This document shows positions 4,338 through 25,941 of a stretch of DNA of 64,000 bases, one piece after another (the first letter of the stretch is position 1; each line of letters begins with the position of its first letter). The DNA lies in assembly GCF_048403405.1 (NCBI RefSeq), contig NZ_CP183129.1; one strand, written 5' to 3'. Source of the stretch: Escherichia coli (GTDB lineage: Bacteria > Pseudomonadota > Gammaproteobacteria > Enterobacterales > Enterobacteriaceae). The position numbers and the translations under genes were made by a program. Below the pieces are notes generated by a model. It did no database searches, had not been told where the DNA came from, and worked only from the letters and a program-made list of their open reading frames with translations.

Positions 4338-4586
4338 ATGATCCACAGTAGCGTAAAGCGTTGGGGAAATTCACCGGCGGTGCGGATCCCGGCTACGTTA
4401 ATGCAGGCGCTCAATCTGAATATTGATGATGAAGTGAAGATTGACCTGGTGGATGGCAAATTAATTATTGAGCCAGTGCGTAAAGAGCCCGTATTTACGC
4501 TTGCTGAACTGGTCAACGACATCACGCCGGAAAACCTCCACGAGAATATCGACTGGGGAGAGCCGAAAGATAAGGAAGTCTGGTAA
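4338..4586 (+). CDS. mazE: Antitoxin MazE (type II TA)
   Basis: 82-aa [21 protein letters not shown]...; stop overlaps the mazF start. Confidence 0.95.
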
Positions 4587-4921: not shown

Positions 4922-4992
4922 GTGTTACTAACTCACTTCTATTCTGGTCACAGGTTTCCACCTGACAGACCCGCAATTTTCAGGACATTCTA

Positions 4993-5784: not shown

Positions 5785-5996
5785 GGGAATTACGTGGTCA
5801 AGCGCGATTTGTGTCATTTTTTAAATGACAAGCGCTTGATTTGCGTCAAAAACATTTACCCCAAAGGGGCTATTTTCTCACTCCTGATTTCAATAGTGCG
5901 CTGGCGAAGAGGAGGGATAATGAAAGTTTGTGGCACAGGTCATGTTCGGGTATACTGCTTTCCCGTCCTGGTTATTCCATCGTCTTTTCAACCTAA

Positions 5997-7649
<1,653 letters not shown>

Positions 7650-9967: not shown

Positions 9968-10260
9968 TATAAATGTCCCATTAAAGCTGGATAAATAAAT
10001 TGACGGCGACATCGGTAATTTGAGATTCGTTATAATTAAAAACGAACACAGAAAAAATAAGTATAATTTTGGTGAATGTTTTTGACATGATTAAATCCAT
10101 TTGCTTTATTTATTTCTGACATAATACGTTACTCCCTTTTATTATTAACGATCTGTTTCTCATTTTTCTTTAAACCTGCCTGTAACAGAATGTTAATAAG
10201 ACATGATTGTTGCGGCAGGATCTGCAATAATTAACAATTATCCACTTCACAGAGAATGCT

Positions 10261-11169: not shown

Positions 11170-11270
11170 TGCTCTTTAACATAATGGATGTGTTGTTTGT
11201 GTGATCCTGTAAAGTTGGTAGATTGTGACTGGCTTAAAAAATCATTAATTAATAATAGGTTATGTTTAGA
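11170..11270 (+). promoter_or_regulatory. CRISPR leader (AT-rich) of the queE-proximal array
   Basis: AT-rich sequence directly upstream of repeat 1; contains GTTGGTAGATTGT (about 11214-11226) 57 nt before the first repeat, the same motif and spacing as upstream of the cas2-proximal array. Confidence 0.7.
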
Positions 11271-12031
11271 GTGTTCCCCGCGCCAGCGGGGATAAACCGC
11301 GTTCAGCGTTGCTGGGCTGCGCAATGGACTGGTGTTCCCCGCGCCAGCGGGGATAAACCGCGGAGTTTTCACGGAACGCACAGCGAATTATGGTGTTCCC
11401 CGCGCCAGCGGGGATAAACCGCCGATAAATTTTCGCCCCGTTTCCAGCGCCGCGTGTTCCCCGCGCCAGCGGGGATAAACCGTTCAAACTGTAGGGATCG
11501 GCAATGGTGCCGAAGTGTTCCCCGCGCCAGCGGGGATAAACCGGGGCATTAGAATAACTTAAATGGAAAAAGAAAGTGTTCCCCGCGCCAGCGGGGATAA
11601 ACCGTCAGCCAGCACATAATTTTTATAGTCAGTATTGTGTTCCCCGCGCCAGCGGGGATAAACCGAAAGAGGTTATCGAGCGATATAACGCGTCCATGTG
11701 TTCCCCGCGCCAGCGGGGATAAACCGGTGCCTGGCGTCCATCTATTCACATGCCGCGCGTGTTCCCCGCGCCAGCGGGGATAAACCGTATTGGCGACGAT
11801 GGCATACCAGGACTACTCCGTGTTCCCCGCGCCAGCGGGGATAAACCGGCTCAGCGTCTGCTCTGGTGCCTCGCCCGTGAGTGTTCCCCGCGCCAGCGGG
11901 GATAAACCGGACCGTTACGGGCGCGTTCTTGGACTTGTTGAGTGTTCCCCACATCAGCGGGGATAAACCGGACACAGAGCGCCGCTATAGCGCCTATGCC
12001 AAGAGTTTCCCGCACCAGCGGGAATAAACCA
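11271..12031 (+). CRISPR. CRISPR array (CRISPR2.1-like): 13 repeats, 12 spacers of 32 nt
   Basis: 29-nt repeat GTGTTCCCCGCGCCAGCGGGGATAAACCG at 61-nt period starting 11271, 11332, 11393 ... 12003; repeat 12 degenerate (CCCCACATCAGCGGGG), terminal repeat 13 degenerate (GAGTTTCCCGCACCAGCGGGAATAAACCA). Frame anchored on ORF-track entries that translate repeats as RFIPAGAGNT/GLSPLARGT. Confidence 0.97.
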
Positions 12032-12485
12032 CCATATAACCCGTTATCTCTTTCTCAAGTTTTTATATTAGCTGTACTTGTAATAAGCAACATATCCACG
12101 TAACACCTCATGTTCAAAATAGTTCTCCATGTCAGAGAAGTTCACAATTATCGATACAAAAAATTAAATTTAATCAAAGTGTTATTTGTATGATTCTTAA
12201 ATCGTTAAGAAATTTTAATCTATTATTTTTTTAATATTGAATTAATGCCTGTTAATTTTTTCTTTAGAATAACAGTGTGTTTTTTAAGCTTGTTATTCAT
12301 TGATTAAGTAATAAATCTGGAAGTTTGTCTTTGTTTTGAGGCTAATGAGTGGTTTTACATAACCGTCTCTATAGGCTGTTGATGAATAGTTCTTATGAAT
12401 AAAGATATCCAGTTCATACTTTAAATGAAAATTGATAAAGTACGGTTTGCGTTGTCTTTTATTCTAAAGACATCGAGTGTAGTTA

Positions 12486-12624
12486 ATATTCCTTGTAAAA
12501 ACAGGGATAAACCGAACTAGTTAAAGTTTTTATTATGTTCCCTGCATCAGCGGGGATAAACCGGACTTGTTATCATTTTTTAAGTTGTCGAACTTATGTT
12601 CCCCACGTCAGCGGGGATAACCAT
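12486..12624 (+). CRISPR. Degenerate CRISPR remnant (CRISPR2.2-3-like), about 3 decayed repeat units
   Basis: Repeat-like units ending ACAGGGATAAACCG (12501-12514), ATGTTCCCTGCATCAGCGGGGATAAACCG (12535-12563) and ATGTTCCCCACGTCAGCGGGGATAACCA (12596-12623), separated from the main array by about 450 bp of AT-rich DNA. Confidence 0.7.
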
Positions 12625-12669
12625 TCAGGTATGTTCAGGCCGGGCAGTTTCCCGCCCGGTCTTCCTCAC

Positions 12670-14148
12670 TTACGCATTCGACCAGCTCTGGATCGAATCC
12701 GCATTCCCCAATTCCCCATGCATCACTTCATACGATTTTTTCAGGATTACATCAGTATGTTTGGTTAACTCCTTGAAAATGCCTTTATTCATCGCGTTGT
12801 AGCGTTTGGCGTTGCTCTCAACAGGCATAAAGATATCTTTCACGCGAACCATTTTGTCGACAGCCGTTGCGTAATCCGGGTATAGCCCCAGACCTACCGC
12901 CGTATTAATCGCTGCCCCCAGGCTTGCACAACCATTAATGGCGTTACGGCGTGCCGGAAGGTTGAACACGTCGGCAAAAATCTGCATAAACAGATCGCTG
13001 TTCGAACCGCCGCCAGTAATGATCACATGCTTTGCAAAGTGATTCATTTCATTACACATATTGTCGTAATTGTTCTTCAGCGTCAGCGCCACGCTTTCCA
13101 GTATCGAACGATATATCCATGCGTAATCCATGCTGGAATCAAAGCCAATCATAATCCCGCGTTTGTACGGTTCCCACGGATTGGTCAGCCAGTCCAGCAC
13201 CGTCATCAGACCATTACAGCCTGGCGGCACACAAGACGCTTTTTTGTTGAGCAAATCTTCCGGTGAAAGATCCTGTGCTTTGGCATCCTGAATTAACGAC
13301 TCGCCTAACATGTCGCGTAGCCAGCTCACCGTCCACATGCCTTTGCGAATACCGTAACCTTCATACAGCAAGGTTTGCGGAATAGAAGACATAATCGGCC
13401 AGTACGCTACCGGATCTTTCGGTAGTAATTTGCCGTTCATCATCAACGCGATGTAAGTGCCAAGAGAAATTACCGCAGTTTCATCATCCAGTAACCCGGC
13501 TCCCAGTGCTTCTACCGGTTTATCACTGGTGGTACAAACAACCGGCAGCCCAGCCGGGAAATGTGTCGCCAGCGCGGCTTGAGGAGTGATATGCCCAAGA
13601 ACAGTGCCCGGCATTTGCACATCAAACAGCATATGACGGGGGATATTAAACTTCTCCATGACTGCGGCATCTTCACTCCATGCCCAGGTCTTATAATCCA
13701 CCGGCCACTGACCAAAATAGTTGGCGATATTGTCTTTAAACTCGCCGGTTAAGCGATGCGTCAGATAACCCGAAAAAGAGGTGACATATGCCACGTCAGG
13801 ATTCGTATGTTCGTAAGGGCGTGTAACGCGTGCATCCTGCCAGCTAATCAACGGCGCAGCTGGCGTGCCATCGGCTTTCAATAACGCACGGCAGCAACGG
13901 ATGGATCCCAGACCAATACCGACAATATCTTCTTTATTTCCGGCAAACTGACTCATCAAATCGTGACCGGCAAAGCATAATGATGCCCATAAATCGTCGT
14001 CAGGATGTTCTGCGGTATCGGCATCTGGCGTGTGCATCGGCTGCAATAAGCCTTTGCCTTCGCAAACCACATTACCTTCCAGATCGTACATCACCACTTT
14101 TGTGCTCTGACTTCCACCATCAATCCCTATGATGTATTTTTTCGACAT
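12670..14148 (-). CDS. ygcE: FGGY-family carbohydrate kinase YgcE
   Basis: 492-aa ORF MSKKYIIGIDGGSQSTKVVMYDLEG... typical of FGGY sugar kinase N-terminus. Confidence 0.9.
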   Translation of the reverse strand: MSKKYIIGIDGGSQSTKVVMYDLEGNVVCEGKGLLQPMHTPDADTAEHPDDDLWASLCFAGHDLMSQFAGNKEDIVGIGLGSIRCCRALLKADGTPAAPLISWQDARVTRPYEHTNPDVAYVTSFSGYLTHRLTGEFKDNIANYFGQWPVDYKTWAWSEDAAVMEKFNIPRHMLFDVQMPGTVLGHITPQAALATHFPAGLPVVCTTSDKPVEALGAGLLDDETAVISLGTYIALMMNGKLLPKDPVAYWPIMSSIPQTLLYEGYGIRKGMWTVSWLRDMLGESLIQDAKAQDLSPEDLLNKKASCVPPGCNGLMTVLDWLTNPWEPYKRGIMIGFDSSMDYAWIYRSILESVALTLKNNYDNMCNEMNHFAKHVIITGGGSNSDLFMQIFADVFNLPARRNAINGCASLGAAINTAVGLGLYPDYATAVDKMVRVKDIFMPVESNAKRYNAMNKGIFKELTKHTDVILKKSYEVMHGELGNADSIQSWSNA

Positions 14149-14174
14149 GATTTTTCTCCTGTAATTTTCTGGAC

Positions 14175-15452
14175 TTACTTGCTGCTAGCCATAGCAGGGG
14201 CGCTATCAGCAGTACGAATTTTTTGGAACAGCAAAAAGGTAAAGACGATCACCATGGCAAGCGCCGCCATGCCCATCAGCCACATATTGCGGTAGGCTTC
14301 TGCAGCGGGCAGGGTGTCTTGCCAGTAGCCGATAATCGGGTAAACGAAGACATCCGGCAGGAATCCAATCACCGAACAAATACCTACCGTGGTGCCCATA
14401 ATGTAAGACGGTGTTCTCGCTTCGCCAGGGCAGGCCCAGTACAGCCCGCGTGAGGCGTAACAGGTGAATCCCAGCAGTAAAATCAGGCCAATCCCCATCG
14501 CGACCGATTGCGGGTTAGAGTTCGTGACGAGCAGGGCAGTTAACGCCAGCAAGCCGAGTACGGAAAGGATTTGGATCACGCGGGTAGGGGATTTCACTTT
14601 GCTGTAGGTGGAGATAATGCCACCAAGTGGGCCGCACAGTGCGCGGAAGATTTTGTTGATCACAATCCCCATGTAGCTCGCCGCCACCAGCGACATGCCG
14701 TACATTTCGGTCAGATAGTTGGTGGAGTAACTCAGAATGGCGTAGATGGTGAAGACACCAAAAATCACCATGCTGCAATACCAGGTGGTGCTGATGCGCA
14801 AAACAGCCAGGATGTCGCTAAGCTGGAATGACTGTTTTTCTTCGTTATTGGTATTGCGCAGGTTGTTGTTATCGCTAACAAAAAACCAACACAAAATGCC
14901 CAGCAGAATGTAAACCACACTATAGATAATAATGACCGTTTTCAGGCTGGCGCTGTCATCCGGTGCAAAGCGAGAAAAGACCCACATGGTAAACACCGCC
15001 AGCGACATTACACCGACGCCGCGCAGCCCTTCCATCCAGCCCATAATTTTCCCTTGCTCGCTATGATCGCCCAGCAACGAGGCGGCTTTAATCGACACCG
15101 ACCACAGCATTAAAATCGTCGTTATCGCAAAGGCGACCTGAATACAGAGCATTACCCACAGCGGTGGATATGTTGCCATTAACAGACCCAGTAATCCGGT
15201 AATGATCATCGCGGAAGTAATCATTTTGCGGTGTGAAAATTTATCGGCAATAACGCCGCTGGGGGCATAAAGAATAATAGCCGCAATACCAAAGGTACTC
15301 ATTATTAAACCTATCTCGGTATTGCTGAATCCCATAAATTTCGCCATGGGAATTTGATAAATATAACGTAAATAAGCCAGGTCGAAACTAACGCCGCCGC
15401 TAAAACTAATTATCGCGAGGGTTATCCAACGGCGATATGAGTTGTGTTGCAT
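14175..15452 (-). CDS. yqcE: MFS transporter YqcE
   Basis: 425-aa polytopic hydrophobic ORF upstream of and co-oriented with ygcE. Confidence 0.88.
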   Translation of the reverse strand: MQHNSYRRWITLAIISFSGGVSFDLAYLRYIYQIPMAKFMGFSNTEIGLIMSTFGIAAIILYAPSGVIADKFSHRKMITSAMIITGLLGLLMATYPPLWVMLCIQVAFAITTILMLWSVSIKAASLLGDHSEQGKIMGWMEGLRGVGVMSLAVFTMWVFSRFAPDDSASLKTVIIIYSVVYILLGILCWFFVSDNNNLRNTNNEEKQSFQLSDILAVLRISTTWYCSMVIFGVFTIYAILSYSTNYLTEMYGMSLVAASYMGIVINKIFRALCGPLGGIISTYSKVKSPTRVIQILSVLGLLALTALLVTNSNPQSVAMGIGLILLLGFTCYASRGLYWACPGEARTPSYIMGTTVGICSVIGFLPDVFVYPIIGYWQDTLPAAEAYRNMWLMGMAALAMVIVFTFLLFQKIRTADSAPAMASSK

Positions 15453-15626
15453 ATCGTATTCCCATTTGTAATAGACAAAAAAAGAGAAAAGTAAGCCGCC
15501 CTTTCAGGTGGATTACTTTTCTCAGGTCTCTAGTAATTGCAATAAGAAATAACATGGAAAGTAGTGGTGTTGTGTGAGAGTAATCACGCTTCTGCTTTTT
15601 AAAATTATTTGACAATTCGAATATCA

Positions 15627-15648
15627 CACTGTGATTACGATCACATTA
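15627..15648. promoter_or_regulatory. Candidate CRP site in the yqcE/ygcW divergent region
   Basis: TGTGA-TTACGA-TCACA at about 15630-15645 matches the CRP core consensus TGTGA-N6-TCACA. Confidence 0.55.
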
Positions 15649-15697
15649 GCGATTATGCCCTTATGATAAAAATTATCTCCAGTTACCAGAGATAATG

Positions 15698-15744
15698 AGA
15701 AAGGTAACTTCCCTCTCGCGGGGGAAGTTACCTTTCTTTTTTTG
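15698..15744 (+). terminator. Leader terminator/attenuator hairpin immediately upstream of the ygcW RBS
   Basis: AAAGGTAACTTCCC-TCTCGCGG-GGGAAGTTACCTTT (14-bp perfect stem) followed by CTTTTTTTG; upstream AGTTACC (15681-15687) is complementary to GGTAACT in the left arm, a possible antiterminator alternative. Confidence 0.65.
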
Positions 15745-15767
15745 CCTTACGGAAATTGGAGCTAACT

Positions 15768-16553
15768 ATGTCAATCGAATCTCTCAATGCGTTCTCAATG
15801 GATTTTTTCTCCCTGAAAGGTAAAACCGCAATTGTTACCGGCGGGAATAGCGGTTTAGGCCAGGCATTTGCCATGGCGCTGGCCAAAGCAGGCGCAAATA
15901 TCTTTATTCCAAGCTTCGTTAAAGATAACGGCGAAACAAAGGAAATGATTGAAAAACAGGGTGTTGAGGTGGACTTCATGCAGGTGGATATCACCGCAGA
16001 AGGCGCGCCGCAGAAGATAATCGCCGCCTGTTGCGAACGTTTCGGTACCGTCGATATTCTGATTAACAATGCCGGTATTTGTAAGCTGAATAAGGTGCTG
16101 GACTTCGGTCGTGCCGACTGGGACCCGATGATTGATGTGAACCTGACCGCCGCATTCGAGTTAAGCTATGAAGCTGCAAAAATTATGATCCCGCAGAAAA
16201 GCGGTAAAATCATTAATATCTGTTCATTATTCTCTTACTTAGGTGGACAATGGTCACCTGCATATTCTGCCACTAAACATGCTCTTGCCGGGTTCACCAA
16301 AGCTTATTGTGATGAACTAGGTCAATATAATATTCAGGTAAATGGTATTGCTCCGGGATATTACGCTACCGATATCACTCTGGCGACCCGTAGTAATCCA
16401 GAAACTAACCAGCGCGTTCTTGATCATATTCCGGCAAACCGTTGGGGCGATACTCAGGATTTAATGGGCGCAGCCGTATTCCTCGCAAGTCCGGCATCGA
16501 ATTATGTCAACGGACATTTATTAGTGGTTGATGGCGGTTATTTAGTGCGCTAA
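15768..16553 (+). CDS. ygcW: Short-chain dehydrogenase/reductase YgcW
   Basis: SDR fold TGGNSGLG; ATG at 15768 with GGAG RBS preferred over the TTG start at 15756 in the ORF track. Confidence 0.9.
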   Translation: MSIESLNAFSMDFFSLKGKTAIVTGGNSGLGQAFAMALAKAGANIFIPSFVKDNGETKEMIEKQGVEVDFMQVDITAEGAPQKIIAACCERFGTVDILINNAGICKLNKVLDFGRADWDPMIDVNLTAAFELSYEAAKIMIPQKSGKIINICSLFSYLGGQWSPAYSATKHALAGFTKAYCDELGQYNIQVNGIAPGYYATDITLATRSNPETNQRVLDHIPANRWGDTQDLMGAAVFLASPASNYVNGHLLVVDGGYLVR

Positions 16554-16622
16554 TCCATAACGGTGGTTTCTGTTTTCTCTTATTAATGATTATTCCATTT
16601 TTATTATCAGGAAGGAATTACT

Positions 16623-18077
16623 ATGTCTTTATCTCGCGCAGCGATTGTCGACCAGCTAAAGGAAATTGTTGGTGCAGATCGCGTAATTACCGATGAAACA
16701 GTATTAAAGAAGAACAGTATTGACCGTTTTCGCAAATTTCCGGATATTCATGGCATTTATACTTTGCCGATTCCGGCAGCGGTCGTAAAACTCGGTTCCA
16801 CAGAACAAGTATCCCGTGTGCTGAATTTTATGAATGCGCACAAAATTAACGGTGTGCCGCGTACCGGTGCTTCCGCTACCGAAGGTGGGCTGGAAACCGT
16901 TGTGGAAAACTCGGTGGTGCTCGACGGCTCTGCCATGAATCAAATCATTAATATTGATATTGAGAATATGCAGGCCACGGCGCAATGCGGAGTTCCGCTG
17001 GAAGTGCTGGAAAACGCGTTGCGTGAAAAAGGTTACACCACGGGGCATTCTCCGCAGTCAAAGCCGCTGGCGCAGATGGGCGGCCTGGTAGCAACCCGCA
17101 GTATCGGGCAGTTCTCCACACTCTACGGCGCAATCGAAGATATGGTCGTTGGTCTGGAAGCAGTATTGGCTGATGGCACCGTAACACGCATTAAAAACGT
17201 ACCACGCCGCGCGGCAGGCCCGGACATTCGTCACATCATCATCGGCAACGAAGGTGCATTGTGCTATATCACTGAAGTAACAGTGAAAATCTTTAAGTTC
17301 ACCCCGGAAAACAACCTCTTCTACGGCTATATCCTGGAAGACATGAAAACCGGCTTCAACATCCTGCGTGAAATCATGGTGGAAGGGTATCGTCCGTCGA
17401 TCGCTCGTTTGTATGACGCTGAAGATGGCACCCAACACTTCACCCATTTTGCCGACGGAAAATGCGTGCTGATCTTTATGGCTGAAGGTAACCCTCGCAT
17501 TGCGAAGGCGACGGGCGAAGGGATTGCTGAAATCGTGGCACGTTACCCGCAATGCCAGCGAGTGGACAGCAAGCTGATCGAAACCTGGTTTAACAACCTG
17601 AACTGGGGACCGGATAAAGTAGCTGCCGAACGTGTGCAGATCCTCAAAACCGGCAACATGGGCTTTACCACCGAAGTGTCCGGCTGCTGGAGCTGCATTC
17701 ACGAAATCTACGAAAGCGTTATTAACCGTATTCGTACCGAGTTCCCGCACGCCGACGACATCACCATGCTGGGCGGTCACTCCTCTCATAGCTATCAGAA
17801 CGGCACCAACATGTACTTCGTCTACGACTACAACGTCGTTGACTGTAAGCCGGAAGAGGAAATCGACAAGTACCACAATCCGCTCAACAAAATCATCTGC
17901 GAAGAAACCATTCGCCTCGGTGGTTCGATGGTGCACCACCACGGCATTGGTAAACATCGCGTTCACTGGAGCAAGCTGGAACACGGCAGCGCGTGGGCGT
18001 TGCTGGAAGGGCTGAAAAAGCAGTTCGATCCTAACGGCATTATGAATACGGGTACTATCTATCCGATTGAAAAATAA
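16623..18077 (+). CDS. ygcU: FAD-linked oxidase YgcU (GlcD / alkyl-DHAP synthase-like)
   Basis: 484-aa ORF with FAD-binding PCMH-type domain features. Confidence 0.88.
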   Translation: MSLSRAAIVDQLKEIVGADRVITDETVLKKNSIDRFRKFPDIHGIYTLPIPAAVVKLGSTEQVSRVLNFMNAHKINGVPRTGASATEGGLETVVENSVVLDGSAMNQIINIDIENMQATAQCGVPLEVLENALREKGYTTGHSPQSKPLAQMGGLVATRSIGQFSTLYGAIEDMVVGLEAVLADGTVTRIKNVPRRAAGPDIRHIIIGNEGALCYITEVTVKIFKFTPENNLFYGYILEDMKTGFNILREIMVEGYRPSIARLYDAEDGTQHFTHFADGKCVLIFMAEGNPRIAKATGEGIAEIVARYPQCQRVDSKLIETWFNNLNWGPDKVAAERVQILKTGNMGFTTEVSGCWSCIHEIYESVINRIRTEFPHADDITMLGGHSSHSYQNGTNMYFVYDYNVVDCKPEEEIDKYHNPLNKIICEETIRLGGSMVHHHGIGKHRVHWSKLEHGSAWALLEGLKKQFDPNGIMNTGTIYPIEK

Positions 18078-18118
18078 TGTGTCAGGCAGCGTTCCGCGAT
18101 GACGGAGCGTTGCCTTTT

Positions 18119-18149
18119 CGGCTTCTCAGGCGAGAAGCCGTTCTTATTA
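18119..18149 (+). terminator. Hairpin between ygcU and ygcS (candidate internal attenuator)
   Basis: CGGCTTCTC-AGGC-GAGAAGCCG (9-bp stem) followed by TTCTTATTA, about 40 nt after the ygcU stop and 20 nt before the ygcS ATG. Confidence 0.45.
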
Positions 18150-18170
18150 CCGGACAATGAAGGGGTAAAG

Positions 18171-19508
18171 ATGAACACTTCACCGGTGCGAATGGATGAT
18201 TTACCGCTTAACCGTTTTCACTGTCGAATTGCTGCGCTCACTTTCGGCGCACACCTGACCGACGGTTATGTTCTCGGCGTCATTGGTTACGCCATTATTC
18301 AGCTTACGCCCGCCATGCAACTGACGCCGTTAATGGCGGGAATGATTGGCGGCTCGGCGCTCCTTGGTTTGTTTCTTGGCAGCCTGGTTCTTGGATGGAT
18401 CTCCGACCATATTGGTCGGCAAAAAATCTTCACCTTCAGCTTTTTGCTGATTACGCTCGCTTCGTTTTTACAATATTTTGCCACCACGCCAGAGCATCTT
18501 ATAGGACTACGCATTTTGATTGGCATTGGTCTGGGAGGCGATTACTCAGTAGGTCACACTTTGCTGGCTGAATTTTCTCCGCGCCGCCATCGCGGTGTTT
18601 TGCTGGGCGCATTCAGTGTGGTGTGGACCGTAGGCTATGTGCTGGCAAGTATTGCCGGACATCACTTTATTACCGAAAGCCCGGAGGCCTGGCGCTGGCT
18701 GCTGGCATCAGCGGCGTTACCAGCCTTGCTGATTACGCTGCTACGTTGGGGAACGCCAGAATCGCCACGCTGGCTACTGCGCCAGGGGCGTTTTGCAGAA
18801 GCTCACGCTATCGTGCATCGCTACTTTGGTCCCCATGTTTTACTGGGCGATGAAGTGGCAACGGCGACCCATAAACACATCAAAACCTTGTTCTCTTCGC
18901 GCTACTGGCGGCGCACGGCGTTTAACAGCGTCTTCTTTGTCTGCCTCGTAATCCCATGGTTTGTGATTTACACCTGGCTGCCAACTATCGCGCAAACTAT
19001 TGGTCTGGAAGATGCGCTGACAGCTAGCCTGATGCTTAATGCGTTGTTAATTGTGGGCGCGCTGCTGGGATTAGTTCTGACGCACCTGCTGGCACATCGC
19101 AAATTTTTGCTGGGAAGTTTTTTGCTGCTGGCGGCAACGCTGGTAGTGATGGCCTGTTTGCCTTCCGGTAGTTCATTAACGCTGCTGCTTTTTGTTCTCT
19201 TCAGCACCACCATTTCGGCAGTCAGTAATCTGGTGGGCATTTTGCCTGCGGAAAGTTTTCCTACTGACATTCGCTCGCTGGGCGTCGGTTTTGCCACCGC
19301 CATGAGTCGGTTGGGCGCGGCAGTAAGTACGGGCCTGCTGCCGTGGGTGCTGGCGCAGTGGGGAATGCAAGTCACCTTATTGCTCCTGGCGGCAGTGTTG
19401 TTGGTTGGTTTTGTCGTGACCTGGCTATGGGCACCAGAAACCAAAGCACTCCCGCTGGTGGCGGCGGGAAATGTAGGAGGTGCGAATGAACATTCTGTTA
19501 GCGTTTAA
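18171..19508 (+). CDS. ygcS: MFS transporter YgcS
   Basis: Polytopic membrane ORF; internal ATG at 18171 (MNTSPVRMDD...) chosen over the ORF-track start at 18099. Confidence 0.88.
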   Translation: MNTSPVRMDDLPLNRFHCRIAALTFGAHLTDGYVLGVIGYAIIQLTPAMQLTPLMAGMIGGSALLGLFLGSLVLGWISDHIGRQKIFTFSFLLITLASFLQYFATTPEHLIGLRILIGIGLGGDYSVGHTLLAEFSPRRHRGVLLGAFSVVWTVGYVLASIAGHHFITESPEAWRWLLASAALPALLITLLRWGTPESPRWLLRQGRFAEAHAIVHRYFGPHVLLGDEVATATHKHIKTLFSSRYWRRTAFNSVFFVCLVIPWFVIYTWLPTIAQTIGLEDALTASLMLNALLIVGALLGLVLTHLLAHRKFLLGSFLLLAATLVVMACLPSGSSLTLLLFVLFSTTISAVSNLVGILPAESFPTDIRSLGVGFATAMSRLGAAVSTGLLPWVLAQWGMQVTLLLLAAVLLVGFVVTWLWAPETKALPLVAAGNVGGANEHSVSV

Positions 19509-20265
19509 AGCCGAACCGGATGCCGGAATGCTGGCGGAAAAAGAGTGGCAGGCGGCGGCTCAGGGTAATAGCGGACCGGATGTTTCGCTTCTGCTAAGTT
19601 TACTCGGTGCTGATGAACAGGCTGCCGCCGCGCTGCTGTTGGCGCAGAGAAAAAACGGTACGTCGATGTCTTTAACCGCGTTGAGCATGGGGAATGAACG
19701 GGCGTTGCACTGGCTGCGCTATCTCATGGCTCTTGGGTTTGAGGAAGCTGTATTGCTGGAGACGGCGGCAGATCTGCGCTTTGCGCCGGAATTTGTCGCT
19801 CGCCATATTGCCGAATGGCAGCGTCAGAATCCGCTGGATCTGATAATTACCGGCTGCCAAAGCAGCGAAGGGCAGAATGGGCAAACGCCATTTTTGCTGG
19901 CGGAAATGCTGGGCTGGCCCTGCTTCACCCAGGTGGAGCGTTTCACTCTCGACGCGCCGTTTATCACCCTCGAACAGCGTACTGAACATGGGCTGCGCTG
20001 TTGCCGGGTTCGCTTGCCTGCGGTGATTGCCGTGCGTCAGTGTGGTGAAGTGGCCTTGCCAGTACCGGGAATGCGCCAGCGAATGGCTGCGGGGAAAGCA
20101 GCAATTATCCGTAAAACTGTTGCTGCCGAATCGCCAGCGATGCAGTGTCGGCAACTGGCAAGAGCAGAGCAACGACGCGGAGCGACGCTGATTGATGGGC
20201 AAACGGTAGCAGAAAAAGCGCAAAAGCTATGGCAGGACTATTTACGCCAAAGGATGCAGCCATGA
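19486..20265 (+). CDS. ygcR: Electron-transfer flavoprotein beta-subunit-like protein YgcR
   Basis: ORF MNILLAFKAEPDAGML... ETF-beta/FixA-like; start trimmed from the ORF-track 19480. Confidence 0.85.
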   Translation: MNILLAFKAEPDAGMLAEKEWQAAAQGNSGPDVSLLLSLLGADEQAAAALLLAQRKNGTSMSLTALSMGNERALHWLRYLMALGFEEAVLLETAADLRFAPEFVARHIAEWQRQNPLDLIITGCQSSEGQNGQTPFLLAEMLGWPCFTQVERFTLDAPFITLEQRTEHGLRCCRVRLPAVIAVRQCGEVALPVPGMRQRMAAGKAAIIRKTVAAESPAMQCRQLARAEQRRGATLIDGQTVAEKAQKLWQDYLRQRMQP

Positions 20266-21122
20266 ATATCGCAATTGTGACAATAAATCAGGAGAATGCC
20301 GCAATAGCGAGCTGGCTGGCAGAACAGGATTTCAGCGGTTGTACCCTGGCACACTGGCAGATTGAACCTCAGCCCGCTGTGGCGGAACAGGTACTGGATG
20401 CGCTGGTGGAACAGTGGCAGCGAACGCCTGCGGACGTTGTTATCTTTCCGCCGGGAACGTTTGGCGATGAACTGTCGACCCGGCTGGCCTGGCGTTTACA
20501 TGGTGCAAGCATCTGCCAGGTGACTTCGTTAGATATTCCAACCGTAAGCGTGCGCAAATCCCACTGGGGAAATGCGCTAACGGCGACGCTGCAAACAGAA
20601 AAACGCCTGCTATGCCTTTCCCTGGCGCGTCAGGCGGGAGCAGCGAAAAACGCCACGTTGCCCTCTGGTATGCAGCAACTGAACATTGTCCCAGGTGCGC
20701 TTCCCGACTGGCTGGTTAGCATAGAGAATCTGAAAAATGTTAGCCGCGACCCATTAGCTGAAGCCAGACGGGTGCTGGTGGTGGGGCAGGGCGGAGAGGC
20801 AGATAACCAGGAAATCGCTATGCTGGCAGAAAAGCTGGGAGCCGAAGTGGGCTACAGTCGGGCGCGAGTGATGAACGGTGGCGTTGATGCTGAAAAAGTG
20901 ATTGGTATTTCCGGACATCTGCTGGCACCTGAGGTGTGCATTGTTGTTGGCGCTTCCGGCGCAGCAGCGTTAATGGCGGGCGTACGCAATAGCAAGTTTG
21001 TGGTGGCGATTAATCATGACGCCAGCGCGGCGGTATTTTCACAGGCAGATGTTGGCGTGGTTGATGACTGGAAAGCGGTGCTGGAGGCACTGGTGACAAA
21101 CATTCACGCAGATTGCCAATAA
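20262..21122 (+). CDS. ygcQ: Electron-transfer flavoprotein alpha-subunit-like protein YgcQ
   Basis: ORF MNIAIVTINQENAAIASWLAEQ... ETF-alpha/FixB-like; overlaps the ygcR stop. Confidence 0.85.
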   Translation: MNIAIVTINQENAAIASWLAEQDFSGCTLAHWQIEPQPAVAEQVLDALVEQWQRTPADVVIFPPGTFGDELSTRLAWRLHGASICQVTSLDIPTVSVRKSHWGNALTATLQTEKRLLCLSLARQAGAAKNATLPSGMQQLNIVPGALPDWLVSIENLKNVSRDPLAEARRVLVVGQGGEADNQEIAMLAEKLGAEVGYSRARVMNGGVDAEKVIGISGHLLAPEVCIVVGASGAAALMAGVRNSKFVVAINHDASAAVFSQADVGVVDDWKAVLEALVTNIHADCQ

Positions 21123-21125
21123 CGT

Positions 21126-21238
21126 GTTGCCGGATGATCCTGCCGATGGTTCTGGGCTGGGGATTTGTAAGCCTGATAAGACGCGTCAAGCGTCGTATCA
21201 GGCGCTGAATGTCGGATGTGGCGTGCAGCCTACAAATC
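21126..21238. repeat. REP/BIME-type extragenic palindromes between convergent ygcQ and ygcP
   Basis: GCCTGATAAGACGCGTCAAGCGTCGTATCAGGCG and GTCGGATGTGGCGTGCAGCCTACA match the enterobacterial REP pattern. Confidence 0.7.
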
Positions 21239-21268
21239 ACACAAATTCAATTCGTTACGATTATCCCG

Positions 21269-21844
21269 TCAAAGCAATTTTTTCGCTAGCGTCCAGACCC
21301 CGGTATTCGTGGTGGAAAGCGCCACAACACCCGCGTTAATCGCATTACGCGCATCTTCTTCATCGCACACCAGCCCGCCGGCAATCAGCGGTTGGCGGAT
21401 TTTCTCCGTCACCCAGCCCAGCACTTTGGGCATACAGCCTGGCAGGATCTCAATACAATCCGGATTCGATTGCGCAACTTGCTTATCAATGTTGTGAAAC
21501 GAAATCGAATCAACAATAAACAGGCGATGAATACAGAAAAAACCTTCCGCTCTTGCTGCTTTCAGCATCGATGCTTTCGTGCTGATAATGCCGTCCGCCT
21601 CAGTCACCAGTTTCAAAAACTGAATCACCACTTCTTTATTTGACGCGCCTTCCAGCAAATCAACATGAATAAAAGCATATTTTCCGGCGTTCTTAATCTT
21701 TTTAACGATATTACTGATGGTGCAGATATTGCCGTACAACACGGAAATAAACTGGCATTCAGAGTCGATTGCCAGTTGCAGGCTGGCATTATCTTTAACG
21801 GCAGCAATCACCGGATTCTGGCGGAGCAGGTGTAAGAGGGGCAT
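21269..21844 (-). CDS. ygcP: GlpP-family glycerol-3-phosphate-responsive antiterminator-like protein YgcP
   Basis: 191-aa ORF MPLLHLLRQNPVIAAVKDNASLQLAIDSECQFISVLYG... Confidence 0.8.
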   Translation of the reverse strand: MPLLHLLRQNPVIAAVKDNASLQLAIDSECQFISVLYGNICTISNIVKKIKNAGKYAFIHVDLLEGASNKEVVIQFLKLVTEADGIISTKASMLKAARAEGFFCIHRLFIVDSISFHNIDKQVAQSNPDCIEILPGCMPKVLGWVTEKIRQPLIAGGLVCDEEDARNAINAGVVALSTTNTGVWTLAKKLL

Positions 21845-21860
21845 AAATTATCCTTATTAT

Positions 21861-22121
21861 TTATCCAAAACGGTAGGTGATGCCGAATCCGGAAGGCGGA
21901 TAGCGCCACTGTTGTAGTGTTGATTCGTCGCACAGCAAACGGCAGGTGCCACACTCCAGGCAGCCGCGATAATCAACGCGTAAGTCACCTTCCGGTGTGA
22001 GCGAAAAAAGACCAGCCGGACAAGCGTTAATCAACCGTTGTACCGTCTGACGCTCAACGGAGTCAGCCGGAACAATGTGCGGCGCATCGGCAACGCGCCA
22101 GAGATTACGGGCTACAGACAT
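21861..22121 (-). CDS. ygcO: FixX-like ferredoxin YgcO
   Basis: Cys motif CLECGTCRLLC; internal Met (MSVARNLWR...) chosen as start. Confidence 0.8.
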   Translation of the reverse strand: MSVARNLWRVADAPHIVPADSVERQTVQRLINACPAGLFSLTPEGDLRVDYRGCLECGTCRLLCDESTLQQWRYPPSGFGITYRFG

Positions 22122-23383
22122 CGCAGACTCCTGATAACATCGCCCGCCAGATGCCACAGGCCGTGACGACGTAAATGACGCCAGAATAACTGGCGCAGCG
22201 GTGGAACAGGTTTATCACCCTGATCCCATAAATCACGGGAAATATCCTGCATTAACGCAGGCCATGCACGGTACCATCCAGGGCGTTGCAAAAGCGCCGG
22301 AACATGCTGATAACGTTGTAGAACATCCCATAGCAGGCTGCGCTCTATGTTGTGATGATAAAGCGCAAACAGATTTTGCGGCTCGCGGTGCTGGCAGGCG
22401 CTTATCAGCGTTTGTGCCGCCGCCTGCGCGCCAGTCAGCGCCATATCCATGCCGCGCACGGAAATTCCGGTATTGACGCAACTGCGCAACGCATCGCCCA
22501 GCAGCAGCCAGCCGTTACCGGCGTATTGCACCGGCATACTGTGCAAGCCACCTTCTGGCACCAGATGCGCACCATACTCCAGTGATTCCGTGTTTTTGAT
22601 AAGCGGGCGCACTGCCGGATGCGTTTTAAAGCGAGCCAGCAGCTCGCTTGCCGGAACACGACTTTGCGTAAGGGAAGAGAGCGGGCAAACAATCCCTAAC
22701 GAGAGCGTTTGTTGATTAGTATAAAGAAATGTGCCGCCGGGTAAGTCATCACAGATCCTGCCGCTGAACAGCAACGCTGCGCCTTCGTTATTCTCCAGAT
22801 GAAAACGTTCTTCAATAGCGGATGTTTCCAGCGACAGCACTTCTTTGATCCCCAACGCCATCGCTTCGCCAGCAGGACGAGTCACTAACCCGTGACGTTC
22901 AGCCAGGACGCTGTTGGCACCTTCTGCCAGCACCACATAACGGGCGCGGAGAATATCGTCACCACAAATGACACCACACACCCTGCCGTTTTCTTCATAC
23001 AGCGCATCCACCGTCGCACCAGGGATGCATTCGACACCTTCTTTTTCGGCTTCGGCAACCAGCCACGGATCGAACCGTGCACGTAATACGCTCCAGGATT
23101 CACCGCCGGGCTGTAAGCTGGAAAACGTCGTTGCGCCATCCGGCGTTAACAGGGAAAGGCTTTCGTGAGTGATGCGTCGTTCAAGAGGCGCGGTCAGATG
23201 AAATTGTGGGAGGAGTTCCGCGAGCGCATGGGTGTATAAACGCCCGCCGGAAAGGTTTTTACTGCCGGGAATTTCAGCTCGTTCCAGTAACAGAACGGAC
23301 AAACCTGCCCGCGCGCAGCGTAAAGCACAAGCGGTGCCTGCTATACCCGCACCAATAATAATAATGTCGCAGTCGTCTTCCAT
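22112..23383 (-). CDS. ygcN: FixC-like FAD-dependent oxidoreductase YgcN (ETF-quinone oxidoreductase family)
   Basis: N-terminal dinucleotide-binding motif DIIIIGAGIAGTACA; start set at MEDDCD... Confidence 0.85.
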   Translation of the reverse strand: MEDDCDIIIIGAGIAGTACALRCARAGLSVLLLERAEIPGSKNLSGGRLYTHALAELLPQFHLTAPLERRITHESLSLLTPDGATTFSSLQPGGESWSVLRARFDPWLVAEAEKEGVECIPGATVDALYEENGRVCGVICGDDILRARYVVLAEGANSVLAERHGLVTRPAGEAMALGIKEVLSLETSAIEERFHLENNEGAALLFSGRICDDLPGGTFLYTNQQTLSLGIVCPLSSLTQSRVPASELLARFKTHPAVRPLIKNTESLEYGAHLVPEGGLHSMPVQYAGNGWLLLGDALRSCVNTGISVRGMDMALTGAQAAAQTLISACQHREPQNLFALYHHNIERSLLWDVLQRYQHVPALLQRPGWYRAWPALMQDISRDLWDQGDKPVPPLRQLFWRHLRRHGLWHLAGDVIRSLRCL

Positions 23384-23460
23384 GTCGTGCCCCATATATC
23401 CAGAGCGCAACACCCTAACATAGCGTTACTTAAGGGAAATTGACCGCCGACACACTCTTA

Positions 23461-23826
23461 TCATTCGCCGCGATAGATGCAACCTGCGGTGCAGGTTTCT
23501 TTCACCATAACCGCACTTAACAGCGGAACAACCGGTTTAACCTGATCCCAAATCCATTTTGCTAAAACCTCGCTGGTCGGGTTTTCCAGGCCAGGAATAT
23601 CATTGAGATAATAGTGATCGAGGCGCTCGTAGGTTGGCTTAAACGCCGCTTTTAGTTCAGCGAAATCGATAATCCAGCCCGTATGCGGATCGACTTCCCC
23701 GGTAATTTCCAGTCGCACCATAAAGGAATGCCCGTGCAGGCGACCACATTTATGCCCTTCCGGGACGTGTGGTAAGCGGTGAGCGGCTTCGAAGGTGAAA
23801 TCTTTAAATAACGTGGTGGACATCAT
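23461..23826 (-). CDS. queD: 6-carboxy-5,6,7,8-tetrahydropterin synthase QueD
   Basis: [35 protein letters not shown]... ; internal Met start chosen over the ORF-track 23910. Confidence 0.92.
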
Positions 23827-24141
23827 AATTTCTCTACATGACGATAAAACCGCCGTAGAGTACCGGAAAGGCTGTTTTTTCGCATTATCTAAAACGACTT
23901 TGTTGCGCAAAATCGCTGATTTATCTTAATGATTGGCTAAATTCATTTGTTTTTCATTGGGTTGGTTAATCTGTTTTGTTGTTAAAGACTATTGCTAAAA
24001 CAGGTTAGTCGATTTGGTTATTAGTTATCGCTATCCCGTCTTTAATCCACACCGTTCACCCCGTTAACCTTACCTTCTCTTCTGTTTTATGGGCGCTGAC
24101 AGGGCGCAGAAACAGCTTTGCTTACTGGAACATAACGACGC
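23827..24141. promoter_or_regulatory. Upstream regulatory region of cysJIH (expected CysB-dependent promoter)
   Basis: 315-bp AT-rich non-coding region upstream of cysJ; assignment rests on known cys-regulon biology, no individual site mapped here. Confidence 0.4.
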
Positions 24142-25941
24142 ATGACGACACAGGTCCCACCTTCCGCGTTGCTTCCGTTGAACCCGGAGCAACTGGCACG
24201 CCTTCAGGCGGCCACGACCGATTTAACTCCCACCCAGCTTGCCTGGGTTTCTGGCTATTTCTGGGGCGTGCTCAACCAGCAGCCTGCTGCGCTTGCAGCG
24301 ACGCCAGCGCCCGCCGCAGAAATGCCGGGTATAACTATTATCTCTGCTTCGCAAACCGGCAATGCGCGCCGGATTGCTGAAGCATTACGCGATGATTTAT
24401 TGACGGCAAAACTGAACGTTAAGCTGGTGAACGCGGGCGACTATAAATTCAAACAAATCGCCAGCGAAAAACTGCTTATCGTGGTGACGTCAACGCAAGG
24501 GGAAGGGGAACCGCCGGAAGAAGCCGTCGCGCTGCATAAGTTCCTGTTCTCCAAAAAAGCGCCGAAGCTGGAAAACACCGCGTTTGCCGTGTTTAGCCTC
24601 GGCGATAGTTCTTATGAATTTTTCTGCCAGTCCGGGAAAGATTTTGACAGTAAGCTGGCGGAACTGGGCGGTGAACGCCTGCTCGACCGTGTCGATGCCG
24701 ACGTTGAATACCAGGCTGCTGCCAGCGAGTGGCGCGCCCGCGTGGTTGATGCGCTTAAATCGCGTGCGCCTGTCGCGGCACCTTCGCAATCCGTCGCTAC
24801 TGGCGCGGTAAATGAAATCCACACCAGCCCGTACAGCAAAGACGCGCCGCTGGTGGCGAGCCTCTCTGTTAACCAGAAAATTACCGGGCGTAACTCTGAA
24901 AAAGACGTTCGCCATATCGAAATTGACTTAGGTGACTCGGGCCTGCGTTACCAGCCGGGTGACGCGCTGGGTGTCTGGTATCAGAACGATCCGGCACTGG
25001 TGAAAGAACTTGTCGAACTGCTGTGGCTGAAAGGTGATGAACCTGTCACCGTTGAGGGCAAAACCCTGCCGCTGAACGAAGCGCTACAGTGGCACTTCGA
25101 ACTGACCGTCAACACCGCCAACATTGTTGAGAACTATGCCACGCTTACCCGCAGCGAAACGCTGCTGCCGCTGGTGGGCGATAAAGCGAAGTTACAGCAT
25201 TACGCCGCGACGACGCCGATTGTCGACATGGTGCGTTTCTCTCCGGCGCAACTGGATGCCGAAGCGCTGATTAACCTGCTGCGCCCGCTGACCCCGCGCC
25301 TGTATTCCATCGCCTCCTCGCAGGCGGAAGTCGAGAACGAAGTACACGTCACCGTTGGCGTGGTGCGTTACGACGTGGAAGGCCGCGCCCGTGCCGGTGG
25401 TGCCTCCAGCTTCCTCGCGGACCGCGTGGAAGAAGAGGGCGAAGTCCGCGTCTTTATCGAACATAACGATAACTTCCGCCTGCCAGCCAATCCGGAAACC
25501 CCGGTGATTATGATTGGCCCAGGCACCGGCATCGCGCCGTTCCGCGCCTTTATGCAGCAGCGCGCTGCTGACGAAGCGCCGGGGAAAAACTGGCTGTTCT
25601 TTGGCAACCCGCACTTTACGGAAGATTTCCTCTACCAGGTGGAGTGGCAGCGCTACGTCAAAGAGGGCGTGCTGACGCGTATCGATCTCGCCTGGTCGCG
25701 CGATCAAAAAGAAAAAGTTTACGTACAAGACAAACTGCGCGAACAGGGCGCGGAGCTGTGGCGCTGGATCAATGACGGTGCCCACATTTATGTCTGCGGC
25801 GACGCTAATCGCATGGCGAAAGACGTTGAGCAGGCACTTCTGGAAGTGATTGCCGAATTTGGTGGCATGGACACCGAAGCGGCGGATGAATTTTTAAGTG
25901 AGCTGCGCGTAGAGCGCCGTTATCAGCGAGATGTCTACTAA
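24142..25941 (+). CDS. cysJ: Sulfite reductase [NADPH] flavoprotein alpha subunit
   Basis: 599-aa ORF with flavodoxin-like and FAD/NADPH-binding halves. Confidence 0.96.

Follow-up and report, generated by a model that had tools for sequence, protein, structure and literature searches.

What compound is served by a block of ten adjacent genes in Escherichia coli, named ygcE, yqcE, ygcW, ygcU, ygcS, ygcR, ygcQ, ygcP, ygcO and ygcN in RefSeq on the matching record, and how is the block switched on? The genes lie in a stretch of 64,000 nucleotides (contig NZ_CP183129.1), which is called the window here and to which all positions refer unless a locus is named. A reading made from the letters and their translations (the sequence-only reading) had described the block as a catabolic cluster for a phosphorylated sugar or polyol of undefined identity, with its own module of electron-transfer flavoprotein (ETF) and FixCX genes. 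Our analysis favours, with a probability of about 0.6, the view that the ygc genes form one inducible catabolic regulon for a small hydroxylated compound, gated by the cyclic AMP (cAMP) receptor protein (CRP) and by YgcP, a protein of the GlpP antiterminator family. For the control part of this view there is good support in silico and, in part, from published binding data; the chemistry is inferred.

Over positions 12000-24000 the window and E. coli MS 69-1 are 100% identical. A match to this segment was found in 5425 of the 5426 complete E. coli genomes, 5061 of which carry at least 80% of it, and all ten cluster genes are intact open reading frames (ORFs). The gene and domain list of the sequence-only reading was confirmed, with matching Pfam domains and correct coordinates, the Fer4 match of ygcO being weak. 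The flanks were also as described, with a type I-E CRISPR array on one side and queD on the other. Its statement that the substrate is undefined holds for the literature searched: queries on the ygc gene names and on related enzyme combinations returned no paper assigning a substrate or function, and none of the ten proteins reached an NCBIfam equivalog cut-off. YgcE protein and induction of ygcU transcription have been reported (PMC8605246, PMC13012123), and in a 2026 PNAS paper ygcU was still "an additional FAD-binding oxidoreductase" (FAD, flavin adenine dinucleotide).

CRP sites and leader elements between yqcE and ygcW

The divergent operons yqcE-ygcE and ygcW-U-S-R-Q are separated by an intergenic region of 315 nt, which holds two CRP sites and two sister leader elements, one per operon:

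15465-15543, minus strand: yqcE leader element (covariance model 64.7 bits, E = 7e-12; fold z-score -3.9)
15538-15532 and 15517-15512: yqcE antiterminator strands AAUUACU and AGUAAU, with the purine box AGAGACCUGAGAAA between them
15523-15484, minus strand: yqcE terminator, followed by a U7 run at 15483-15477
15573-15588: second CRP-like site TGTGAGAGTAATCACG, predicted by pattern search with 1 mismatch, its centre about 41.5 nt upstream of the yqcE leader start
15630-15645: CRP site TGTGATTACGATCACA, a perfect consensus 16-mer, its centre about 41.5 nt upstream of the ygcW leader start
15676-15757, plus strand: ygcW leader element (covariance model 64.8 bits, E = 6e-12)
15681-15687 and 15703-15709: ygcW antiterminator strands AGUUACC and GGUAACU, with the purine box AGAGAUAAUGAGAAA between them
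15697-15738, plus strand: ygcW terminator of 19 bp, GC-rich, with a U run to 15743, directly before the ribosome-binding site

The 16-mer TGTGATTACGATCACA was the sole zero-mismatch CRP match in a pattern search of the 64-kb window. An identical sequence was bound by CRP in vivo in a chromatin immunoprecipitation (ChIP) study of enterotoxigenic E. coli (ETEC) (PMC4287617), the same perfect site was bound in vitro in a footprint with a Kd of about 1.7 nM (PMC12871828), and yqcE-ygcE has been classed as Crp-activated (PMC8085971). Both CRP sites and both leaders are kept across genera. Judged by its spacing, the region would fit two class II CRP promoters whose transcripts start at the leader elements.

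The ygcW leader folds with -47.4 kcal/mol (z-score -7.8), and its 19-bp hairpin and U run end 25 nt before the ygcW ATG; the yqcE leader ends about 12 nt from the yqcE start codon. Common to both leaders is the arrangement GAGAAARGUAA...UUACYUUUCUY-U7, and each terminator is preceded by RUUACY-AGAG, which repeats its 3' arm. The antiterminator helix encloses an invariant purine box, AGAG-N(3-6)-GAGAAARG.

A covariance model was built from 18 examples, and matches were counted at E < 1e-6. The model returned 113 leader copies in 62 related loci of Proteobacteria, Bacillota and Actinomycetes, and just the two expected copies in the 64-kb window. An Rfam search at E <= 1 over positions 12000-24200 gave two weak, irrelevant matches, one of them on a repetitive extragenic palindromic (REP) element, and none covering the leaders. 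In the 113-copy alignment, 90.8% of the cells of the terminator helix are paired and 14 of its 19 pairs show changes on both sides. The antiterminator helix (alignment columns 6-12 with 33-39) is paired in 94% of cells, whereas sliding the partner strand leaves no more than 54% paired; pair 7-38 is GC in 74 copies and AU in 35, pair 12-33 is UA in 78 and CG in 25, and the covariation score was reached by none of 500 shuffles, all of these being counts that overstate the independent events because related Enterobacterales contribute many of the copies. Even so, each pair type is represented in both Bacillota and Proteobacteria. Column 33 covaries with its antiterminator and its terminator partner, which is the expected signature of mutually exclusive folds. 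The covariation supports both the antiterminator and the terminator helix.

YgcP as the probable partner of the leaders

The candidate for the factor acting on these leaders is encoded by the third gene of the ygcNOP operon:

21269-21844, minus strand: ygcP, GlpP-family antiterminator, 191 aa

YgcP matches G3P_antiterm (PF04309) over residues 12-184 of its 191 (E = 1.4e-62, 210 bits against a cut-off of 27), and 3kts (E = 1e-27) and 1vkf are its solved homologues. The founding member of the family senses glycerol-3-phosphate. Gene and leader follow each other closely through the related loci: both were found in 57 and neither in 22, the leader alone in 5 (four of them truncated contigs) and the gene alone in 1, a locus which carries a weak 33-bit leader copy. 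This co-occurrence and the glpD-like layout of the leaders make it probable that YgcP is the trans-acting factor on both of them.

The comparison with glpD can be made in detail. In Bacillus subtilis, GlpP, a regulator of the same protein family (PF04309), acts on the terminators in the glpD, glpFK and glpTQ leaders, by an antitermination that depends on glycerol-3-phosphate. The glpD 5' untranslated region (UTR), a proven GlpP target, reads GGUCC-UGAGAUGAG-GAGAGACC running into the terminator (PMC9604022 Table S4), and when folded here it gave the same layout as the ygc leaders. Both systems have a promoter, then a protein-binding site (predicted in ygc), then an intrinsic terminator in the 5' UTR; in both, a short strand resembling the terminator 3' arm borders a purine-rich GAGA box. 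A carbon-catabolite layer lies on top of each, by CcpA for B. subtilis glp and by CRP for ygc, and each has a kinase of the glycerol-kinase family that makes the presumed effector. However, the helix sequences differ (GUUAC/GUAAC in ygc, GGUC/GACC in B. subtilis glp), the ygc targets are not glp genes, and, unlike in B. subtilis, the host is Gram-negative and two divergent operons are served from one intergenic region. The adjacent kinase suggests a phosphorylated effector for YgcP. Glycerol-3-phosphate itself is an improbable candidate, as the glp genes of E. coli are under a different kind of control.

The enzyme core and the active site of YgcU

Three enzymes are encoded directly downstream of the two leaders or in the same operons:

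12670-14148, minus strand: ygcE, FGGY-family kinase, 492 aa, second gene of the yqcE-ygcE operon
15768-16553, plus strand: ygcW, short-chain dehydrogenase/reductase (SDR), 261 aa, adh_short domain, similar to KduD and gluconate 5-dehydrogenase
16623-18077, plus strand: ygcU, FAD-linked flavoenzyme of the alkyl-dihydroxyacetone-phosphate (alkyl-DHAP) synthase type, 484 aa, FAD_binding_4 and FAD-oxidase_C domains

YgcW stays below the KduD equivalog cut-offs (PRK06935, 350.1 against 369 bits; TIGR01832, 275.5 against 338.9 bits). KduD and gluconate 5-dehydrogenase oxidise the penultimate hydroxyl of a terminal 1,2-diol. YgcE carries FGGY_N and FGGY_C (69.5 and 78.3 bits) and fits no kinase subfamily of known substrate, scoring 142 bits for XylB (cut-off 380), 139 for LsrK (528), 109 for GntK (649) and 102 for GlpK (590); its nearest solved structure is the autoinducer-2 (AI-2) kinase 5ya0, followed by glycerol kinases.

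The nearest solved relative of YgcU is alkyl-DHAP synthase (AGPS; 4bby, E = 2.8e-40), followed by glycolate oxidase (4.7e-26) and LctD (5e-22). Residues R262, Y398 and H438-H440 of YgcU align with R419, Y578 and H615-617 of AGPS, and the engineered Y578F entry 4bca departs from the wild type precisely at the position aligned with Y398. In AGPS, Arg419, Tyr578 and the His615-617 loop have catalytic roles. R262, Y398 and H438-440 are invariant in ten YgcU orthologues from five phyla. Enzymes of the GlcD or D-lactate-dehydrogenase type have an EHG motif and paired His at a metal site; YgcU is without this motif, with VHHHGIG instead of EHG and Tyr at the second His position, and the GlcD model gives it 143 bits against a cut-off of 568. 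The motif is present in a second oxidase that accompanies ygcU in anaerobes, which has FGHISDNHLHV and TEHGVG, the HxxDxHxH and EHG motifs of metal-dependent D-2-hydroxyacid dehydrogenases. On these alignments, YgcU is assigned as an alkyl-DHAP-synthase-type flavoenzyme with the AGPS active site rather than the D-lactate-type metal site.

AGPS (4bby, 2uuu) and YgcU share the FAD_binding_4 plus FAD-oxidase_C fold with the catalytic Arg/Tyr/His-His-His, and this match would imply a DHAP-like substrate with chemistry at the carbon next to the keto group. The long N-terminal region of AGPS is missing in YgcU (484 against 658 aa), whose residue 60 aligns with AGPS residue 215. Apart from these roughly 155 residues, YgcU differs in standing in a catabolic operon with a kinase and in its coupling to an ETF, whereas AGPS is redox-neutral and biosynthetic and works on long-chain lipids. 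A chemistry identical to the acyl/alkyl exchange of AGPS is therefore disfavoured by the catabolic context and the ETF coupling.

Transporters and electron-transfer genes

The remaining six genes encode two carriers of the major facilitator superfamily (MFS) and the electron-transfer proteins:

14175-15452, minus strand: yqcE, MFS transporter, 425 aa, MFS_1 domain
18099-19508, plus strand: ygcS, MFS transporter of the sugar-porter or metabolite:H+ symporter type, 469 aa as annotated, Sugar_tr domain
19486-20265, plus strand: ygcR, ETF beta, ETF domain, overlapping the end of ygcS by 23 nt
20262-21122, plus strand: ygcQ, ETF alpha, 286 aa, ETF_alpha domain, overlapping ygcR by 4 nt
21861-22121, minus strand: ygcO, FixX-like ferredoxin, 86 aa (FixX model, 84 bits against a cut-off of 166)
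22112-23383, minus strand: ygcN, FixC-like ETF-quinone oxidoreductase, 423 aa, ETFQO_UQ-bd (PF21162) and DAO domains

YqcE matches the D-galactonate or anion:cation symporter subfamily weakly (71 bits against a cut-off of 395), and all subfamily matches of YgcS are under their cut-offs. An alternative start of ygcS was noted at ATG 18171 after GGGGTAAAG, which gives 445 aa, downstream of the annotated ATG at 18099. A terminator-like scan also gave a hairpin in front of this second ATG:

18119-18140, plus strand: hairpin CGGCUUCUCAGGCGAGAAGCCG, 9 bp, GC-rich, between the ygcU stop and ATG 18171

Placed between ygcU and the genes for the transporter and the ETF, it could serve as an internal attenuator or be a site of processing.

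The nearest solved chain to YgcR is the canonical Paracoccus ETF beta (1efp_B, E = 6e-12), and those to YgcQ are human ETF alpha (1efv, 7e-23) and LctC (7qh2_A, 2e-21). The best solved matches of the pair are thus of the canonical type (1efv/1efp), with low scores, and all NCBIfam ETF models are far under their cut-offs. At the FAD site, YgcQ keeps the SR of the human protein ('GASRAAV' becomes 'GYSRARV'), while 'GQTG' is replaced by 'GISG' and 'AIQHLAG' by 'AAALMAG'. YgcO has the Cys pattern CPAG...CLECGTCRLLC and a weak Pfam Fer4 match (20.3 bits against a cut-off of 27). YgcN reaches 382 and 365 bits for FixC-type subfamilies, under their cut-offs, and matches the solved FixC 7koe_C with E = 6e-57. 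Since their scores lie below the equivalog cut-offs, YgcN and YgcO should be paralogues of FixC and FixX and not FixC and FixX themselves.

Across phyla the ETF genes stand directly 3' of ygcU, often with overlapping stop and start codons. The arrangement resembles ETF-dependent D-2-hydroxyacid dehydrogenases and the complex LctBCD of Acetobacterium woodii (7qh2), in which a FAD_binding_4 dehydrogenase also lies beside its own ETF beta and alpha, and LctD, LctC and LctB are detectable homologues of YgcU, YgcQ and YgcR. Unlike in that system, YgcU is without an EHG-type motif and YgcQ without an N-terminal ferredoxin domain; pairwise scores place YgcR and YgcQ nearer to the canonical ETFs than to the bifurcating ones, and the LctD-like enzyme of the anaerobes' clusters is the second oxidase, not YgcU. 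E. coli FixABCX (carnitine), YdiQRST and Thermotoga EtfABCX (7koe) are, as in ygc, four-gene sets of ETF plus FixCX on one catabolic pathway. However, the ygc ETF and FixCX genes are in separate, convergent operons, and FixCX is missing from every non-enterobacterial version. We favour electrons running from YgcU through the ETF and YgcN/YgcO to quinone; the reverse direction was also considered and is weighed below.

Distribution, conservation and selection

YgcU relatives were found in more than 550 scanned species genomes, whose hosts include Enterobacterales, Vibrionaceae, Desulfobacterales, SAR324, Sporomusa, Clostridia, halophilic Bacilli and Saccharopolyspora. Eighty-seven ygcU loci were examined, in which the counts of accompanying genes are lower bounds as many contigs are truncated:

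SDR of the ygcW type: 80 of 87 loci
FGGY kinase of the ygcE type: 73 of 87
ETF alpha: 64 of 87
ETF beta: 61 of 87
ygcP: 56 of 87
MFS transporter of the YqcE type: 48 of 87
MFS transporter of the YgcS type: 43 of 87, Enterobacterales only
FixC of the ygcN type: 36 of 87, Enterobacterales only
second oxidase of the D-lactate-dehydrogenase type: 19 of 87, in anaerobes

The minimal complete unit consists of leader-W-U-E plus P (Saccharopolyspora, Halobacillus). Between E. coli and other phyla, identity is 65-76% for U, 63-82% for W and 43-58% for E, and 26-39% for the ETF subunits; YgcP is 57-61% identical in most phyla and 39% in a Eubacterium metagenome-assembled genome (MAG).

The same division was seen at closer range. 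The ratio of nonsynonymous to synonymous substitution rates (dN/dS), computed against Citrobacter and Klebsiella with saturated dS and therefore rough, is 0.01-0.03 for W, U, P and E (about 0.02 for ygcW), like that of the neighbouring queD and queE, and it is about 0.12 for ygcR, 0.10-0.15 for ygcN and 0.2-0.3 for ygcQ, the fastest gene in the cluster. The ETF subunits and FixC thus evolve 5-10 times faster than the neighbouring W, U, P and E, and YgcQ is 39-59% identical between E. coli and Citrobacter or Klebsiella, compared with 91-94% for YgcU. The cluster is therefore not in decay, and no part of it varies more than the electron-transfer module; what defines it is the W-E-U-P core and not ETF/FixCX.

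In one anaerobe (locus L005, 349-5317) a 561-aa FAD_binding_4 oxidase, an FGGY kinase and a GlpD-type dehydrogenase (DAO plus DAO_C) stand beside a ygc-like core. This second set looks like a parallel kinase-plus-flavoprotein polyol module.

Betaine transporters and MttB proteins outside Enterobacterales

The neighbours of the core in other groups bear on the nature of the substrate. A gene for a betaine/choline/carnitine transporter (BCCT), an OpuAC-type betaine ATP-binding cassette (ABC) system or an MttB-family methyltransferase lies within 10 kb of the W-E-U core in 27 of the 39 non-enterobacterial loci; of the 12 loci without such a gene, nine are on contigs of less than 12 kb. In some of the 27, the MttB genes have corrinoid and pterin-binding partners beside them. 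The leader stands directly upstream of BCCT genes five times, of an ABC permease once and of an MTTB gene once, so these genes would belong to the same regulon and not be chance neighbours. In two Bacillota MAGs (L078, 10004-14033; L074, 10004-15538) the leader controls an operon of an MttB homologue with PanB-like, OpuC-type ABC and proline-racemase-family genes. Pyrrolysine-type trimethylamine methyltransferases were considered for the MTTB neighbours, since that type would imply that trimethylamine is released, and rejected; the ORFs of the neighbours are full length and uninterrupted, so they resemble the quaternary-amine type without pyrrolysine.

The cluster transporter gene of Pantoea, Erwinia, some Serratia and SAR324 has as neighbours a homologue of the formaldehyde-activating enzyme (Fae) and an aldo-keto reductase (L038 of Pantoea, 3261-5420; L053 of SAR324, 5033-7387), and the Pantoea-type, enterobacterial Fae clusters also have an aldehyde dehydrogenase. 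These neighbours hint at the production of an aldehyde or of formaldehyde.

The high identity of W and U across phyla makes one substrate class likely, and the E. coli substrate may be, or may resemble, a hydroxylated quaternary-ammonium or zwitterionic compound. A more specific reading can be put forward tentatively, and is rather unlikely to be right: W-E-U would be an ancient, horizontally spread set that cleaves the C-O or C-N bond in a 2,3-dihydroxypropyl compound with a quaternary-ammonium or zwitterionic head, for which a deacylated betaine-lipid head group or a related osmolyte would be candidates. The SDR and the kinase would yield a 1-substituted DHAP, from which the AGPS-like, ETF-coupled flavoenzyme would free the head group and leave triose phosphate. 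Such a glyceryl compound would use exactly the three core enzymes, which fits the kinship of YgcU with AGPS. E. coli would carry out the same chemistry with MFS carriers replacing BCCT or OpuC, and the conserved leader and the GlpP-family protein would together represent a protein-dependent RNA switch of a new and widespread class.

Proposed pathway and alternative explanations

In the proposed regulon, each of the two divergent promoters would depend on cAMP-CRP, and by default each transcript would stop at the strong intrinsic terminator in its leader. The antiterminator helix would be stabilised by YgcP, which, presumably charged with a phosphorylated intermediate of the pathway, would attach to the purine-rich box. 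Pairing of the RUUACY strand with RGUAAY of the terminator 5' arm would then avoid termination and allow read-through into yqcE-ygcE and ygcW-U-S-R-Q. The substrate, probably a small terminal diol that ends as a DHAP-like ketose phosphate, would be taken up via the MFS carriers YqcE and/or YgcS. YgcW would turn the terminal diol into a hydroxyketone, YgcE would phosphorylate the terminal hydroxyl to give the ketose phosphate, and YgcU would act on the carbon adjoining the keto group, either by oxidation or by cleavage of a substituent. The electrons of YgcU would pass to the translationally coupled ETF YgcRQ and, in Enterobacterales, on to YgcN/YgcO and quinone. Carnitine, choline, 2,3-dihydroxypropane-1-sulfonate (DHPS) and erythritol were tried as substrates, and none fits all three enzymes. 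In the ery pathway of Brucella and Rhizobium, the polyol is phosphorylated by an FGGY kinase, and the product is then oxidised by a flavoprotein dehydrogenase that feeds the respiratory chain. Its logic is similar to that of ygc, but EryB is of the GlpD type and not of the AGPS type, and the ery pathway is without an SDR first step, an ETF and GlpP-type control.

A more conventional explanation would be an ordinary sugar-acid or pentitol/tetritol pathway, with YgcW as an isozyme of KduD or gluconate 5-dehydrogenase, a xylulokinase-like YgcE and YgcU as a D-2-hydroxyacid dehydrogenase feeding the ETF; the betaine-type transporters elsewhere would then reflect a different substrate there. It is encouraged by the score of YgcW (350 bits against the KduD cut-off of 369), by XylB and LsrK as the best families of YgcE, by the resemblance of YqcE to D-galactonate-type anion symporters and by the solved lactate dehydrogenase-ETF complex LctD/LctBC, which is related to YgcU and YgcRQ. 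We consider it unlikely, as AGPS is ahead of glycolate oxidase for YgcU by about 14 orders of magnitude in E-value, and YgcU has the AGPS Arg/Tyr/His-His-His and not the EHG metal motif of the second oxidase. The 63-82% identity of W and U across phyla also argues for a single substrate, and BCCT, ABC-permease and MTTB genes stand behind the same leader. Distinctly unlikely is a reversed electron flow, in which YgcNO and YgcRQ would feed YgcU and YgcU would reductively remove a leaving group next to the keto group, on the model proposed for FixABCX and crotonobetainyl-CoA reductase in carnitine respiration; in anaerobes, the second oxidase would supply the electrons via the shared ETF. The fix genes serve carnitine reduction, and YgcN and YgcO are paralogues of FixC and FixX. 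The anaerobes keep the gene order U-ETFbeta-ETFalpha-second oxidase (19 loci), and one report describes a canonical ETF in Fusobacterium that shuttles electrons from lactate dehydrogenase to a reductase (PMC12630350). However, no reductase chemistry is known for the YgcU fold, and the aerobic clusters without ETF are easier to understand if oxygen or a housekeeping acceptor takes the electrons of YgcU.

Two further explanations concern the control and the state of the locus. The high conservation of the leader sequence and its alternative helices would also suit a ligand-sensing riboswitch or a plain attenuator working without YgcP, which would then have another role. Such a leader is very improbable here given its near-perfect co-occurrence with ygcP, its design, which is that of the protein-dependent glpD leader, and its structure, which has no complex aptamer, just a helix of 6-7 bp round the purine box, and no Rfam match. 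That the cluster is a silent, decaying remnant with no current function in E. coli is hardly credible. No phenotype or substrate was reported in the literature searched, and the ETF and FixC genes evolve fast, but the ORFs are intact, almost all E. coli genomes have a match, purifying selection acts strongly on W, U, P and E, other genera keep both leaders and both CRP sites, and YgcE protein and induction of the ygcU transcript have been detected (PMC8605246, PMC13012123).

Several points weigh against the proposed regulon itself. That YgcW acts before YgcE and that electrons leave YgcU for the ETF are presumptions, the promoter and transcription-start positions come from spacing alone, and the link between YgcP and the leaders was drawn in silico only; the inflated covariation counts and the roughness of the dN/dS values given above belong here too. 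The covariance model found no leader copy upstream of ygcN, so the FixCX genes may be regulated differently; an absent leader makes sense for an operon that encodes the regulator itself. The ETF is absent from complete clusters of Pantoea/Erwinia, Halobacillus, SAR324 and Saccharopolyspora. Clusters without ETF belong mostly to aerobic or plant-associated hosts, Virgibacillus and Alkalihalobacillus being among the hosts too. It follows that YgcU does not strictly need a dedicated ETF, or that it may do no net redox, AGPS being redox-neutral.

With these points included, the sequence-only reading was right to call the cluster catabolic, as CRP binds the control region and purifying selection on the core genes is strong. 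Its "phosphorylated sugar or polyol" stands as far as a phosphorylated intermediate goes, given the kinase and the GlpP-like regulator, and "sugar or polyol" is too generic in view of the AGPS-type YgcU and the betaine-transporter and MttB neighbours outside Enterobacterales. The ETF/FixCX genes that it put forward as the cluster's own module are present, but they are the least conserved part and not the defining one, with FixC in Enterobacterales only and the ETF lost in several complete clusters. Co-regulation, on which it depended, is borne out for seven of the ten genes by the shared CRP sites and by the same leader in both divergent operons, and not for ygcNOP, which is without a leader copy.

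Flanking and other features

The cluster is bordered by the following features:

11269-12035: type I-E CRISPR array, found by repeat search
23461-23823, minus strand: queD, adjoining ygcN

The CRISPR array was missed by Tandem Repeats Finder and recovered by the separate repeat search. Two to three degenerate CRISPR repeats lie at 12486-12628, about 450 nt past the main array, so that the decayed part of the array borders the cluster, only 42 nt away from the stop codon of ygcE. A REP-type palindrome, GCCTGATAAGACGCGTCAAGCGTCGTATCAGGC, at 21171-21203 separates ygcQ from ygcP where the two genes converge, and gives a weak, sub-threshold Rfam match to naRNA4 (28 bits; the gathering score is 59.5). 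Outside the cluster, a CRP-like sequence, CGTGATGCGTGTAACA, was seen at 27356-27371 within cysI, upstream of cysH; it is identical to the CRP-bound (cysI)/cysH site of the ETEC ChIP study (PMC4287617). RefSeq shows a frameshifted small ORF adjoining ygcG at about 9920-10061 of the window and, past cysH, a hok/gef toxin gene and then a frameshifted cas3 from 28730 onward.

Significance of the ygc regulon

In kind, the ygc system combines GlpP-type antitermination with an ETF-coupled flavoprotein dehydrogenase. New here are the reading of the control region, the leader elements, the W-E-U-P core, the AGPS type of YgcU and the link across phyla to betaine transporters and MttB, with uptake of the betaine type and demethylation. 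Ten adjacent genes without an assigned function in essentially every E. coli are among the larger orphan operon sets of the best-studied bacterium, and the two-input switch, CRP together with YgcP on a defined 80-nt leader, gives a concrete handle on the inducer and hence on the substrate. If the proposed regulon is correct, GlpP-type antitermination would be a portable regulatory module, shared by Proteobacteria, Bacillota and Actinomycetes, instead of something peculiar to glycerol use in Bacillota, and the use of AGPS chemistry in catabolism by YgcU would be a new chemistry for this flavoenzyme family. The link to betaine transporters and MttB in marine and gut anaerobes could tie the pathway to methylated-amine turnover.

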